DNA of 64,000 nt from Nitrosopumilus sp. (lineage in GTDB: Archaea > Thermoproteota > Nitrososphaeria > Nitrososphaerales > Nitrosopumilaceae): positions 128,001 to 192,000 of the forward strand of contig OZ244651.1 of assembly GCA_965218695.1 (NCBI GenBank), read 5' to 3'. Every line of letters begins with the position of its first letter. Positions within the stretch are counted from its first letter, which is position 1. The translations under genes were made by a program, and so were the position numbers. This document shows positions 1-63,961 of this stretch, piece by piece. The notes below the pieces were generated by a model, which saw only the letters and a list, made by a program, of their open reading frames with translations, made no database searches and was not told the origin of the DNA.

Positions 1-522
1 GGACTGGGATTCCTTGAGGCGCTAAACTCCAACCTTACCAGCATGGACGTACTCTACACCCTGACAAACAGGAAACCCCAAAACCCGTTTTCGGTGCTTG
101 ACTCAAAGAGTCGCGAGCACACCGTCCTGCGCGACTCCGTCCTGCCAGAACTCCTTGAGAACCTTTCAAGAAACATACACGTGGCATACCCACAGAAGAT
201 CTTTGAGACCGGCACCATATTCCTTGAGGGTGACCCGGTATCCGAGATGACAAGTCTTGCCGCAGTCAGCGCCCACCCGGACGCAAGCTTTACTGAGATA
301 AAGTCCGTACTCCAGTCGTGTCTTGGAACCGGGTTTGGAATGAAGATACAGACTCATACATCCGTCCATCCAACATTCCAAAAGGGCAGGTGCGCTGACA
401 TCATGATAAATGATCAAAGCGTGGGGACAATCGGGGAGATCGCCTCTGAGGTAGTCCGTAACCACAAGATCCGCAACCCGGTTGCAGGCTTTGAGATATC
501 CCTGTCCGAGACCATTCTATAG
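1..522 (+). CDS. pheT: Phenylalanyl-tRNA synthetase beta subunit, C-terminal part (5' end outside window)
   Basis: Motifs LRDSVLPELLENL..N...YPQKIFETG, F..GR.A.I, GEI....GFEI match archaeal PheT. The current stop TAG (520-522) is the first 3 nt of the inserted TnpB element. Confidence 0.9.
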   Translation, partial: GLGFLEALNSNLTSMDVLYTLTNRKPQNPFSVLDSKSREHTVLRDSVLPELLENLSRNIHVAYPQKIFETGTIFLEGDPVSEMTSLAAVSAHPDASFTEIKSVLQSCLGTGFGMKIQTHTSVHPTFQKGRCADIMINDQSVGTIGEIASEVVRNHKIRNPVAGFEISLSETIL

Positions 523-557
523 TGAAGAGCATAAGTTCCTGCAATTATAACACTCCC

Positions 558-565
558 TTTTTAAG
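558..565 (+). promoter_or_regulatory. TATA-like box in element left end, about 25 nt upstream of tnpB ATG
   Basis: TTTTTAAG lies at archaeal leaderless spacing from ATG 587. The equivalent TTTTTACA is retained in the MITE copy at about 37153. Confidence 0.5.
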
Positions 566-586
566 AAAACAAGTTCTATTGTGTAC

Positions 587-2045
587 ATGATTGTCAGCAA
601 AAGCATCAAAATTATACAATTACGAAAACTGTCACGCAGGATAGCCGAATGTTCCAAGGAGTCAGACATTATTTGACATGACGATCATGATGAAGCTGGC
701 GCATCCCAGAATGACGCAGTTTGATGTCAACAACCTGATGACCAGATGGTGCAGGGAATTCAACCTGATCAACGGCGTCCGCATGCATGAGGCCGCCTCG
801 AAACAGGCTTTCTAGGCTGTAATCAAATTTAGGAAATCAAATGTGAAAAAACACACAAAACGGATCTGGCGCAGGAGACAGATAAATCTCGGCAAAACCA
901 AAACGTACAAACACAACAGGTGGACAGATCCATCCAGCCTGATGAGACGGGGCAAAAAAACCACGAGGCTGCGTTCACTGAATTCACGCGGAAAGCCAAA
1001 ACTGCAGGACGACGACACCGTGTTTCTGCCCTGACTCGGAGAAGTAAGGACGCGCACGAAGATCCCATCCGAAGGCAGGCCCGTGTCATTCCAAATGATC
1101 GACGTCACCGACAAAGTCACGCGCAGGACAATGGATGGTGATCGCGAGTTCAAATTACATTTGCAAGTTGAAATCCCAGATCCCGAGCCTGCGACCGGTT
1201 CGGTGGCAGGATTGGATCTAGGAGTCAGGCACCCGGCGGCAGTTGCAGACGAGCATGGGAGCGAAAGGCTGTACGACATCCCTAGCGGTTGCAGGCGTCA
1301 CGACGGTGACAGGATTGACAAACTCAAGTCATGCAGGTCAAGATTCGTGCATGGTTCGCGCAAATGGAGTGAAATCAGCCGCAAGATAAAACGCGAATTG
1401 AAAAAGATATCCGACAGGCAGAAACGCAACGAGATCGACATAGCCAGACGGATAACAAAAGGACTGTCCGTGTTGTTTTTGGAAGACATGGATTTGACCA
1501 AAATGAGGCGATCCAACGGAAAGGCATCAAAGACCAGGCTGAACCGCGAGACGGCATACTCTAGGATGGGGGAGTTCCGGAGCCAAGTTGAATGGCAGAT
1601 GAAAAAGAAGGGCGGGATTCCAAAACGCGTGGAACACAAAAACACCAGCAGAACGTGCATGAGGTGCAAGGCTGTGGACAAGAAATCAAGAAACGGCGAA
1701 TCATTTGTCTGCGTCGCATGTGGATGGCGCCACCATGCCGACAAGAACGCGGCACAAATCATTTTGACTAACGAACGTCTCCACATTGGGGGGACTGGCG
1801 GCCAAGCCTACTGGAACAGTGGAGGCATCATTGCGGATGTCGAGGTCGTCACAAGGCGCGAGGATCACGGTTCGAGCCGTTCTGTAAAGGACAACTTGAC
1901 CAGTCGGCTTGGACCCGACAACAACAACAACGACAATGATATTGGAAGATCTGACAGAGCGCCAGAAAGAGCATTAGGACGTGACACGGGGAAACCTGTC
2001 TTGCACGAACTTTTACTCGCCGCTATAAAGTCCTCTCAGCCATGA
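587..2045 (+). pseudogene. tnpB: TnpB RNA-guided endonuclease, disrupted
   Basis: RuvC motifs GLDLG, LFLEDM and HHADKNAA, plus Zn finger CMRC...CVAC. ATG 587 is out of frame with the 678-2045 frame, which has in-frame stops at 813-815 and 1032-1034. Confidence 0.88.
1820..2025 (+). ncRNA. Putative omegaRNA/reRNA scaffold of the TnpB element
   Basis: About 200 nt between the TnpB catalytic C-terminus and the right end, conserved in three copies. The stem GGTTCGAGCCG...CGGCTTGGACC is kept through pairing-compatible substitutions in the MITE copy. Confidence 0.65.
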
Positions 2046-2345
2046 CACTGCAGACAGTATTACCCCTGCTGAAAGAATTCCTGCCCCTATGACTGACTCT
2101 GCCACCAGCCTCTGATGGATTGCCCTCTCCTCTGAGCCAGGCAGCAGGCGGGATTCTGAACCAAGCCTGCCCTCCTCCTCCAGATACTGAATCTGGGGAT
2201 AGTCAAAGATTACGACCATGGAGCCAAGAACCATCATTACAATCCCTGCCAGAAAGAACCCTGTCCTGTTCATCTGATTCCAGTCGTAAACTTCATCATT
2301 TAACCCTGGTCGAATATAATGCCCCTCCCAAGGCCAAATCCGCAT
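2013..2345 (-). CDS. Small membrane protein (2 TM)
   Basis: Two hydrophobic segments. The likely start is the internal MNRTG. The last 4 codons derive from the inserted element. Confidence 0.7.
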   Translation of the reverse strand: MRIWPWEGHYIRPGLNDEVYDWNQMNRTGFFLAGIVMMVLGSMVVIFDYPQIQYLEEEGRLGSESRLLPGSEERAIHQRLVAESVIGAGILSAGVILSAVSWLRGLYSGE

Positions 2346-37082: not shown

Positions 37083-37116
37083 ACTCGGAGGGAAATCCGA
37101 TCCCGTTAAAAGTCTA

Positions 37117-37389
37117 TAGCTAAAATCACAAGTCCGTGCGTTTTTACACCACTTTTTACAAAAACAAATCCTAATTACCGGCATGATCGTTGGCAAAGGC
37201 ATCATTGCAGATGTCGAGGTCGTCACAAGGCGCGAGGATCACGGTTCGAGTCGTTCTGTAAAGTACAGCTTGACAAGTCGGCTTGAACCCGACAACAACA
37301 ACGACACAAGAAGGTCTGACAGAGCACCGGAAAGAGCATCAGGACAAGATACAGAGAAATCTGTCTGCACGAATTTTTGCTCGTCGCTA
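37117..37389 (+). mobile_element. MITE derived from the TIR-bounded TnpB element (left end plus putative omegaRNA/right end)
   Basis: First about 85 bp align to 520-607 and the rest aligns to 1823-2025. Junction at microhomology GCATCA; TA on both flanks (37115-37116, 37390-37391). Confidence 0.88.
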
Positions 37390-37430
37390 TACCCAAAATG
37401 GTAATAAGCCAAGTGCTGACAGGACTGCCA

Positions 37431-63673: not shown

Positions 63674-63961
63674 TGGTGACACCACGCTAACAAGAATGCT
63701 GCGGCGAACATCTTAGCTAGCGTACGTCTCCACTTGGCGGCTGACGGCCAAACCCGATTCGTCGGAGGCATCATTGCGGATGTCTCAGTCGTCACAAGAC
63801 GTAAGGATCACGGTTCGGTTGCAGACATGCAACCGGCAGGTCGGCTAGAACCCGGCAGAGACGATGACAGTGCAGGCTGCAAGCGCTTGGAAGGGCTGGC
63901 AGGCAGGGTCAAGGAATCGCTGAGCCACTCCAAATACCTCAAGCTGGACGAGACCCCGTAG
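63674..63961 (+). pseudogene. Chimeric remnant: TnpB C-terminus and omegaRNA 5' part joined to an IS66 transposase fragment
   Basis: W*HHANKNAAANIL...GGIIADVSVVTRRKDHGS aligns to 1725-1875. The following ...VKESLSHSKYLKLDETP resembles the IS66 xDET/DES region. Confidence 0.7.

Follow-up and report, generated by a model that had tools for sequence, protein, structure and literature searches.

The analysed window is a 64,000-nucleotide stretch of a Nitrosopumilus sp. genome (C1:128001-192000 of genome G000), and positions given here are those of the window. An element of 1,506 bp, starting with TAG and ending with CTA, was located at positions 520-2025, with one TA immediately to its left (518-519) and another immediately to its right (2026-2027). 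Its left terminal inverted repeat lies at 520-544 on the plus strand and its right one at 2001-2025 on the minus strand. When the left 25 bases were compared with the right 25 in reverse complement, 19 of 25 positions agreed, which confirmed the imperfect 25-bp inverted repeats, the TAG start and the TA flanks described in an earlier reading of this DNA (the sequence-only reading). The upstream frame (1-522) encodes PheT (PF17759, E = 3.5e-32) and ends at the TAG of the left repeat, the first three bases of which are now the pheT stop codon; a PheT protein shorter by five residues is the sole visible effect of the insertion. A putative archaeal TATA-type promoter box, TTTTTAAG, was found on the plus strand at 558-565, 22 nt upstream of the ATG of tnpB. 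The same motif was present at the same position in the copies of the same-genus genomes G110 and G329, and a similar box, TTTTTACAAAAA, was present in a 273-bp copy of the element. Given the general architecture of archaeal promoters, this box is a possible TATA-type promoter of tnpB.

Across the family, the elements measured 1,479-1,602 bp and carried tnpB alone as cargo. Inverted repeats matching at 17-20 of 22 positions were detected in 17 of 23 scanned relatives, and the best pairs in the other six fell off the true ends. A second gene, for either a DDE transposase or an HTH protein, was absent from all 22 elements with readable ends. Because no DDE transposase gene lies inside it, the element was filed as non-autonomous and not as an insertion sequence.

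Both junctions were read for 20 loci, comprising 18 from two same-genus genomes, the window copy and the 273-bp copy. The flanks were TA/TA in 19 and TG/TG in one (L013). The left end was unreadable by pattern at 4 of the 22 loci in the junction table: the left repeats of L018 and L022 were truncated by the same upstream sequence, L021 had a degenerate left end, and the diverged left repeat of L016 was read by eye. The right-end motif was absent from L027; L029, L033 and L034, which were partial matches, lay outside the analysis. Thirteen unoccupied sites had one dinucleotide each where occupied sites have two, and the 2-bp duplication claimed in the sequence-only reading is therefore real. 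Ten insertions of G329 and G110 have an empty orthologous site in G000, each with exactly one dinucleotide, and the empty site for the TG/TG copy L013 contained TG. Flanks of the G329 insertions were 73-99% identical to the empty G000 sites, while 8 of the 18 insertions had no adjacent pair of flank matches in G000 and were uninformative either way. For the window copy, the two TA copies (neither assigned to a strand) were recognized from the empty pheT site in G110 and from runs X5 and X6. The G110 site reads tccTGaaatcc, with one dinucleotide, where the window reads ttcTA[element]TAaagtcc; contigs from the two runs join window position 506 or 508 directly to 2026, reading ...ccgtccTAaagtcc.

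The tnpB frame occupies positions 587-2025 on the plus strand, as determined by three-frame translation, a genome search, alignment to the G329 copy and Pfam. The statement that the element encodes TnpB alone held insofar as tnpB is its sole gene, but the gene is a pseudogene, broken by the loss of 2 nt near position 675 and by two in-frame stops, TAG at 813-815 and TGA at 1032-1034. The closest intact tnpB, from G329, was 85.5% identical to the window copy, and their alignment placed a 2-nt gap at 675. In the genome search, the window copy showed 54% identity to the intact protein P0001 over residues 27-455, with one TGA and one TAG inside the match. The motifs GLDLGV, LFLEDMDL and HHADKNAA are retained, and the frame is broken upstream of them. 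With its tnpB broken, the window copy is a dead member of the family; intact 460-aa tnpB copies are present in two genomes of the same genus. Three other tnpB genes of G000 are single-copy, with 32-35% identity, and no clear ends were found for them.

The 320-aa open part of the window tnpB scored 43.8 bits for OrfB_IS605 and 54.1 bits for Cas12f1-like_TNB in Pfam, and both domains were above the Pfam cut-offs for the window fragment and for P0001. With the NCBIfam model guided_TnpB (cut-off 100 bits), P0001 scored 98.6 bits and its relatives P0002 and P0003 scored 116-117 bits. The RuvC residues appeared in canonical order in the alignments. D210, E299, D384 and the four cysteines C356, C359, C374 and C377 were all invariant in alignment A4 (7 sequences); in alignment A5 (35 sequences), D210 and the four cysteines were invariant, and E299 and D384 were conserved in at least 90%. 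An AlphaFold2 model of P0001 (pLDDT 81.9, residues 400-460 disordered) was searched with Foldseek and matched AsCas12f (E = 1e-16) and ISDra2 TnpB (8h1j, TM 0.73 on the target), together with ISFba1 TnpB and the mimivirus Fanzor2 9b0l. Searched by sequence, the solved structures gave the mimivirus TnpB-like protein L79, a Fanzor2, as top match (E = 8e-12), and no Fanzor1 chain matched at E = 0.01 or better. By these model matches, the protein has the TnpB/Cas12f fold of the RNA-guided nuclease family, and its intact versions would be expected to act as nucleases. Cas12 and the eukaryotic Fanzors descend from TnpB. The search for homologous proteins returned 33 at E = 1e-10 or better. The position of the protein with respect to IS607, IS605 and Fanzor was judged from model scores and solved-structure matches. 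Metagenome contigs scanned with A4 yielded one weak, unrelated locus (L107) and no added context for P0002 and P0003.

The last approximately 235 bases of the element (1790-2025, plus strand) form a conserved structured RNA, a putative omega-RNA scaffold, which shares sequence with the 3' end of the tnpB frame and finishes in the right repeat. RNAalifold was applied to an alignment of 23 sequences (A2) and predicted 54 pairs, nine of them with compensatory changes. Paired cells amounted to 98.9%, compared with 35-47% when the 3' partners were slid, and the nine compensatory pairs compared with 0-2 in the slid controls. The consensus structure pairs bases of the repeat with upstream RNA in its helices 9-11 and 1, and the right repeat would thus double as the 3' part of the scaffold. 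An Rfam scan of window positions 400-2200, at E up to 1, matched no family. From its predicted structure, the RNA is taken to be the omega-RNA of TnpB, and it would be transcribed, with defined ends and a guide.

A second copy with homologous ends and TA junctions, also claimed in the sequence-only reading, was verified at 37117-37389 on the plus strand. With its TA copies (37115-37116 and 37390-37391), this 273-bp deletion derivative, or MITE, spans 37115-37391, and it was identified by its ends, by BLAST and by an orthologous empty site. What it retains is the left end with the putative promoter and the opening nine bases of the frame, followed by the omega-RNA scaffold and the right repeat. 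Its identity to the final 205 bp of the complete element is 85%, and its two ends agree with each other at 15 of 25 positions. The corresponding site in G329 reads aaaagtcTAcccaaaat, with a single TA and flanks 94-96% identical; in G110, approximately 278 bp are missing at this site. A decayed remnant of a third copy was found at 63674-63864 on the plus strand, in which tnpB residues 379-443 survive together with the 5' portion of the RNA scaffold; blastn matched it at 75% to bases 1206-1355 of the element, and tblastn at 57% to residues 379-443 of P0001. The inventory of G000 thus consists of one full copy of the tnpB element, one MITE and fragments. Genome G329 contains about 24 copies of the element's 3' end, 21 of which are 92-100% identical to the query copy.

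An IS630-type transposase with matching ends, as anticipated in the sequence-only reading, was sought, and a 1,102-bp IS630-family insertion sequence with similar ends was found in the same genome. It had no match within the window, and all of its copies lie outside. Forty-one long copies were counted in G000, of which 19 were at least 93% identical to the reference copy, 10 were near 90% and 12 near 70%. An open frame of at least 320 aa was present in 33 of the 41, and the uninterrupted copies in G000 were flanked by TA/TA in 16 of 16 cases. The encoded 337-aa protein scored 172 bits as an NCBIfam IS630 family transposase (cut-off 100) and 76 bits for Pfam DDE_3, and it also contained HTH domains.

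The ends of the tnpB elements matched those of the IS630 at 22 of 26 positions for left with left and 22 of 26 for right with right, compared with 19 of 26 in the cross comparisons (IS630 copy L050 was left out of this matrix). The overall range was 20-22 of 26, and that of the decayed window copy was 18-21 of 26. The left repeat of the window element shared 18 of 26 positions with its counterpart in the resident IS630 and 22 with that of the G329 tnpB elements; the corresponding values for the right repeat were 21 and 23 of 26. As the two sets of ends are similar and not identical, recognition in trans is plausible but unproven. The tnpB elements of G110 begin TACTGACGCGC, as do the IS630 copies L048 (G110) and L049 (G329), and the tnpB elements of G329 and G000 begin TAGTGAA, as does the G000 IS630. 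In G329, the genome richest in the tnpB element, just two intact close IS630 transposase genes were found (L047 and L049), and their left ends were weaker matches to the tnpB element (15-17 of 26).

Full-length copies with a Y1 or serine TnpA, which the sequence-only reading had named as evidence against itself, were found in none of the three host genomes (G000, G110 and G329, each about 99% complete), where the elements carry tnpB only. Under an IS607 assignment, the element would be moved by a serine recombinase through crossover at a TA core, giving TA on both sides of the insertion and one TA when the site is empty, and from sequence alone the observed 2-bp duplication is indistinguishable from such a core dinucleotide. 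The protein also scored higher with NCBIfam IS607_TnpB (79 bits) than with IS200_TnpB (53 bits), both far below their cut-offs, and its top solved-structure match by sequence was Fanzor2 L79. However, the serine recombinase family (Resolvase, PF00239) went undetected in all three genomes and was detected in 12 of 14 control genomes, the inverted-repeat ends are homologous to those of an insertion sequence encoding a DDE transposase alone, and the TG on both sides of L013 together with the TG of its empty site fits a target duplication and not a fixed shared core. An IS607 origin is thus very improbable. Elements of the IS200/IS605 type with a solo tnpB (IS1341 type), the commonest kind in prokaryotes, depend on a Y1 transposase, have neither inverted ends nor a duplication, carry an omega RNA at the 3' end and give rise to short, palindrome-associated derivatives consisting of ends only. 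The present element resembles them in its solo tnpB, its putative omega RNA at the 3' end and its short derivatives, and its left flank, ending in CTA in 22 of 22 elements, could be read as the CTA-type target of a Y1 TnpA acting on single-stranded DNA, with the flanking TA a coincidence. Such an origin predicts no duplication, yet 13 empty sites are one dinucleotide shorter than the occupied ones; the ends are inverted repeats common to IS630 elements; and Y1 (PF01797) went undetected in the three genomes and was detected in 6 of 14 control genomes. It is scarcely credible and ranks below even an IS607 origin.

The shared ends could also reflect common descent alone, that is, an old IS630 whose gene was replaced by tnpB and which no present transposase moves, so that the copies would be relics or would have spread by recombination. 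The decay of the window copy (ends 19/25, gene broken) and the single full copy, single MITE and fragments of G000 are in keeping with this history. The approximately 24 3'-end copies in G329, 21 of them at 92-100% identity and located at sites that are empty in G000, argue against it, and because each G329 insertion has its own 2-bp duplication, recent transposition is indicated rather than recombination. As an account of the family, common descent alone is unlikely, but for the window copy it may well hold.

The best explanation, to which we assign a probability of roughly 0.85, is that window positions 520-2025 contain a non-autonomous IS630-family element carrying tnpB and an RNA scaffold and moved by the resident IS630 transposase. 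This explanation draws on the ends, the 2-bp duplication, the partner insertion sequence, the covariation of the RNA, the predicted TnpB fold and the failure to detect Y1 or serine transposases in the three genomes; the duplication, the partner and the undetected transposase classes also support the proposal of the sequence-only reading that a tnpB with IS630/mariner-like ends is moved in trans by a DDE transposase. The element would belong to the IS630 family (Tc1/mariner superfamily) by its IS630-type inverted ends and the TA duplicated upon insertion, and the transposase of the plain 1,102-bp IS630 would cut it out and paste it in by way of the homologous ends. In intact relatives, the left end would drive transcription of tnpB and the RNA, transcription would carry the 3' end of the RNA past the right repeat into flanking DNA, giving it a guide, and TnpB with its RNA would cut the matching unoccupied site, after which recombination would copy the element back. 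The 273-bp copy at 37117-37389 is a deletion derivative in which the left end and the RNA alone were kept. Since cut-and-paste excision by a DDE transposase leaves a double-strand break, the benefit of a homing nuclease is less obvious here than for IS200/IS605. The same doubt about DDE transposons is raised in section 6.2 of a 2026 review (PMC13565253).

The flanks of the tnpB elements were asymmetrical. C preceded the left TA in 22 of 22 elements and G followed the right TA in 9 of 22, and the 13 discordant elements all leaned the same way (sign test, approximately 0.0002), whereas plain IS630 copies in G000 were symmetrical, with C before TA in 15 of 16 and G after TA in 15 of 16. This asymmetry hints at a guide-RNA system refitted to a target-duplicating transposon, a tentative reading that we regard as possible but rather doubtful. 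In such a system, the right IS630 repeat would also supply the 3' portion of the omega-RNA scaffold, CTA would act as the target-adjacent motif, made up of the C and the one TA present at an unoccupied site, and the guide would begin past the right TA. Empty CTA sites would then be cleaved by TnpB and occupied ones, which read ATA there, spared, and the 273-bp RNA-only copies would be hitch-hikers borrowing both the transposase and TnpB. Alternatively, the asymmetry may come from the transposase, if it works on unequal ends and prefers its target bases on one side only. If the refitted system were real, it would be the prokaryotic parallel to, and perhaps the precursor of, the arrangement of Fanzor1 in Tc1/mariner transposons. 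According to the review (PMC13565253), Fanzor1 occurs in eukaryotic Tc1/mariner and other DDE transposons, and solved Fanzor structures place the 5' duplication in the target-adjacent motif and the 3' duplication in the RNA scaffold; by analogy, this arrangement would fit the flank pattern of the tnpB elements. Both cases involve a TnpB-family nuclease inside a target-duplicating transposon; unlike Fanzor1, the present protein has a prokaryotic host, an ordinary TnpB size (460 aa) and the canonical RuvC order.

Compared with IS630 insertion sequences and MITEs, the family shares the inverted ends, the TA duplication, the CTAG preference and short non-autonomous derivatives, which here would be moved in trans. 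Unlike a plain IS630, it carries an RNA-guided nuclease gene and an RNA as cargo, and its right repeat lies within the structured RNA; unlike IS200/IS605, it has inverted ends and a duplication, and no Y1 was found in its three host genomes. The pairing of tnpB with IS630 is not new and is in print in outline: the only broad survey (Altae-Tran et al., 2023, PNAS; PMC10691335) reports, in its main text, IS630-linked TnpBs with symmetrical ends from genome mining (the 'DDE-6 large branch'), as well as solo TnpBs whose ends resemble those of transposase-bearing elements and which are read as mobilised in trans. As that branch is described there, its TnpB, like the present one, lies inside an IS630-family transposon with symmetrical inverted ends, and the 3' end of tnpB is at most 250 bp from the transposon end. 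By the same description, the DDE-6 branch encodes an IS630 transposase and a separate HTH protein beside tnpB, whereas neither gene occurs in any of the 22 elements here, and their partner, a plain IS630, has no tnpB. The main text of the survey mentions neither Thaumarchaeota or Nitroso- hosts nor a target site duplication. Literature searches found nothing joining TnpB with Nitrosopumil*; the match for TnpB and Thaumarchaeota was unrelated, judging from its title and the start of its abstract, and the match for TnpB and Nitrososphaer*, as far as its record goes, concerned CRISPR classification.

What is new here is an IS630-type tnpB element in an ammonia-oxidising archaeon. Since IS630-linked and trans-moved solo TnpBs have already been described, the case adds a member in the ammonia-oxidising archaea, and the biology of the window copy itself, a dead copy, is modest. 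The family nevertheless offers a checkable example, with exact ends, 13 empty sites and a candidate transposase in the same genome, to which are added a covariation-supported RNA that would reach into the transposase-binding repeat and an RNA-only miniature derivative. With the intact 460-aa P0001 and the approximately 235-nt RNA at hand, it provides material for two questions, namely, mobilisation by the IS630 transposase, and the motif and guide of a TnpB with a duplication between its scaffold and the flank. The finding bears on how TnpB entered cut-and-paste DDE transposons, the setting of Fanzor1.

The tnpB element occupies positions 520-2025 (1,506 bp) within a stretch, 518-2027, that reads ttc-TA-[TAG...CTA]-TA-aag, and its terminal inverted repeats agree at 19 positions when the first 25 bases are set against the reverse complement of the last 25. 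Upstream of the element is the 3' end of pheT (frame 1-522; PF17759, E 3.5e-32), whose stop codon is the element's terminal TAG (520-522). Past the element, positions 2028-2045 still spell the ancestral PheT C-terminus ...LKSSQP, and the matching tail in G110, another genome of the genus, is ...LKSPHP. Since the pheT end is intact in G110 (...ggaacggtccTGaaatcccctcacccatga) compared with the window (...gagaccattcTA[element]TAaagtcctctcagccatga), the last five PheT residues were removed by the insertion. The sole gene inside the element is tnpB, with a 320-aa open part matching Pfam OrfB_IS605 and Cas12f1-like_TNB. This gene is disrupted: codons 1-29 lie in another frame, the main frame carries TAG at 813-815 and TGA at 1032-1034 (the genome search likewise recorded one TGA and one TAG within the tnpB match), and the intact copy closest to it (85.5% identity) has 2 bases near 675 that are missing here. 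The window copy is a dead relic.

Both ends were read in 18 loci and in the two window copies, yielding TA/TA junctions in 19 of the 20 and TG/TG in one (locus L013). TA equals its reverse complement, so TA/TA might belong to the repeat, while the TG/TG of L013 is a direct repeat and is therefore not part of the inverted repeat. Thirteen unoccupied sites were examined. For 10 of the 18 insertions in G110 and in G329, a third genome of the genus, the orthologous site was found in the window's own genome, G000 (flank identity 73-99%, mostly 80-95%). At these 10 sites the left and right flanks, each with its own dinucleotide, overlapped by exactly two bases, giving one dinucleotide per empty site (TA in six, TG in four); L013 has TG/TG because its empty site in G000 is TG. 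Contigs from runs X5 and X6, which belong to two further studies, have flanks ~92% identical; they join window 506/508 to 2026 and present the unoccupied pheT site, ...ccgtccTAaagtcc, with a single TA. The site of the 273-bp copy was unoccupied in G329 (aaaagtcTAcccaaaat; flanks 94-96% identical). The thirteen empty sites are direct proof of a 2-bp target duplication and settle it, and the sequence-only reading of a tnpB element with inverted ends and a TA duplication was thus confirmed.

The 273-bp copy (37117-37389) has TA on both sides (37115-37116 and 37390-37391) and matches the final 205 bases of the full-length element at 85%; it is the second copy that was described earlier as having homologous ends and TA junctions. 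It contains the left repeat, a TTTTTA-type box, ATG plus two codons and then the conserved RNA, and is therefore an internal-deletion derivative; judged by these contents, it could produce RNA, not protein. Locus L110 of G329 holds a ~1.2 kb insertion immediately to the right of the orthologue of window site 37116; it has inverted ends (GCACTCTGTTAACTCTTCG...), is flanked by a duplication of 8 bp (CCCAAAAT) and lies only two bases away from the TA used by the 273-bp copy in G000. Besides the 273-bp copy and one full tnpB element, G000 (2.63 Mb, 9 contigs) contains fragments. A decayed third-copy remnant at window 63674-63864 has no recognisable ends and covers the 5' part of the RNA as well as tnpB residues 379-443. 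A lone 188-bp fragment (L002, C1:1871856-1872043) corresponds to element bases 168-355, in the 5' part of tnpB, at 93% identity; contigs of run X1 have loose ends at positions 688 and 872 of the window, and these are its flanks.

A DNA search of 200 other genomes of the family detected full-length tnpB elements in G110 only (~65% identity), and G329 (81-84% identity) emerged when 150 more genomes from across the genus were searched. The protein-guided scan of species-representative genomes yielded 26 loci, all in two Nitrosopumilus sp. genomes; P0001 is the intact 460-aa frame of one G110 copy. Across 401 genomes sampled from the whole class, G000 among them, proteins more than 50% identical were restricted to G000, G110 and G329. 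Among 1.84 billion representative proteins only 20 reached E ≤1e-30, the closest full-length matches being 51% and 46% identical. By these searches the TnpB lineage is narrow.

The left-end pattern of the G329 copies unexpectedly matched 15 places in G000 and, on the whole genome, 20 places with cTATAGTGAAAAG... These are the starts of a 1,102-bp element with a single 337-aa frame (e.g., C1 708286-709387), the protein of which scored 172 bits for the NCBIfam 'IS630 family transposase' (cut-off 100) and 76 bits for Pfam DDE_3, along with several HTH models. IS630 is very abundant in G000 and falls into three subfamilies: of the 41 long copies, 19 share ≥93% identity with the reference copy, a further 10 are near 90% and 12 near 70%, and 33 of the 41 have a frame of ≥320 aa. 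The window contains none of these copies; the sequence-only reading found no partner because all copies are outside it, and the IS630-type transposase with related terminal repeats that it proposed to look for was found in G000. Uninterrupted copies of the top class were flanked by TA/TA in 16/16, with C before TA in 15 and G after TA in 15; the IS630 target in G000 is CTAG. In one copy another IS630-family element has inserted at ACTAC, so that the junctions read ACTA[TAC...GTA]TAC. In the copies at C1:1229550-1231077 and C1:959028-960555, a 1.5-kb element carrying a ~470-aa frame has inserted at one and the same position, with IS630 bases 118-125 duplicated (8 bp); this inserted element is probably the 8-bp-duplicating transposon type described earlier from the window.

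When ends were compared over 26 bases, the G329 tnpB element shared 22 with the G000 IS630 at the left end and 22 at the right, while left-versus-right cross comparisons gave 19 matches; the window copy shared 18 at the left and 21 at the right. The ends of the two elements thus correspond left to left and right to right. IS630 relatives were also present in G110 and G329 (58-90% protein identity). The G110 tnpB elements start TACTGACGCGC, as do IS630 copies L048 (G110) and L049 (G329), and the tnpB elements of G329 and G000 start TAGTGAA, as does the G000 IS630. Neither the Y1 transposase family (PF01797) nor Resolvase (PF00239) had a match in G000, G110 or G329 (each ~99% complete), whereas 6/14 and 12/14 control genomes, respectively, matched; the full-length copies carry no Y1 or serine TnpA. 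With these ends shared with IS630 and these families without matches, the IS200/IS605 and IS607 routes are ruled out as far as sequence can. Because of the end-for-end match, the shared starts and the missing Y1 and Resolvase families, the best explanation is that an IS630 transposase mobilises the tnpB element in trans, which supports the earlier proposal of IS630/mariner-like, DDE-type mobilisation.

D210, E299, D384 and four zinc-finger cysteines were invariant in the close-family alignment. The AlphaFold2 model of P0001 (35 sequences; mean pLDDT 81.9; residues 400-460 disordered) matched Cas12f, ISDra2 TnpB (8h1j, TM 0.73 on target), ISFba1 TnpB and mimivirus Fanzor2 in Foldseek, and the solved chain nearest by sequence was the mimivirus TnpB-like L79 (E 8e-12). 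IS607_TnpB scored above IS200_TnpB in NCBIfam, both far under their cut-offs, and IS607-type ancestry of TnpB is weakly hinted at. Conservation of the last ~240 bases was much above that of the rest of the element. RNAalifold predicted a structure there (window 1790-2021; 54 pairs, 11 helices) in which helices 1 and 9-11 use right-repeat bases and over which the disordered tail of TnpB is encoded. In this structure 98.9% of cells pair, compared with 35-47% when the 3' partners were slid, and 9 pairs changed on both sides, compared with 0-2 in the slid controls. No Rfam family matches the RNA, and we read the conserved structure as a putative omega RNA, the guide-RNA scaffold of TnpB.

Three more single-copy tnpB genes were observed in G000 (C1:2315840-2316982, 1702526-1703221 and 620466-621422; open frames 451-465 aa; 32-35% identical to P0001), and no clear ends were found when these were looked for. 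Solo tnpB loci in another genus of the family (L081 and L106 in G065, L083 in G100, L084 in G135) share ~33% identity with P0001 and likewise have inverted repeats at their boundaries (16-18/20; GGGAATTATATAC... or similar). In G065 each of the two copies lies between AT-rich direct repeats of ~6-8 bp, which for one of them read TAATTATA at either side. Given these ends and direct repeats, DDE-type tnpB mobilisation may be widespread in this archaeal family, via a different transposase.

An IS630-type tnpB element is of a kind already known, since it is reported by Altae-Tran et al. (2023, PMC10691335) and a 2026 review (PMC13565253). The former describes a 'DDE-6' TnpB branch that has symmetrical ends and is associated with IS630 transposases and a separate HTH protein; it reports inverted repeats in each of the six DDE-associated TnpB groups, and solo TnpBs whose ends are almost identical to the ends of systems that carry a transposase, interpreted as trans mobilisation. 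The review restates these points and, for Fanzors, discusses the entry of target duplications into the target-adjacent motif and RNA scaffold. In contrast to those systems, the host here is an ammonia-oxidising archaeon, the transposase and HTH genes of DDE-6 are absent from every copy, the partner is a plain IS630, the duplication is directly proven and an RNA-only miniature is present. In the portions of the literature we could consult, no report joined TnpB with names beginning Nitrosopumil, and only a CRISPR classification joined it with names beginning Nitrososphaer.

The flanks of the tnpB elements are asymmetric, with C before the left TA in 22/22 and G after the right TA in 9/22; for plain G000 IS630 copies the figure is 15/16 on both sides. 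An alternative explanation is a one-sided target preference of the transposase, a question that the six IS630 copies of G110 and G329 (C in 4/6, G in 3/6) are too few to decide. By analogy with IS200/IS605, a TnpB motif in the left flank consisting of C plus a single TA would explain the asymmetry. If this is the motif, occupied sites would be protected.
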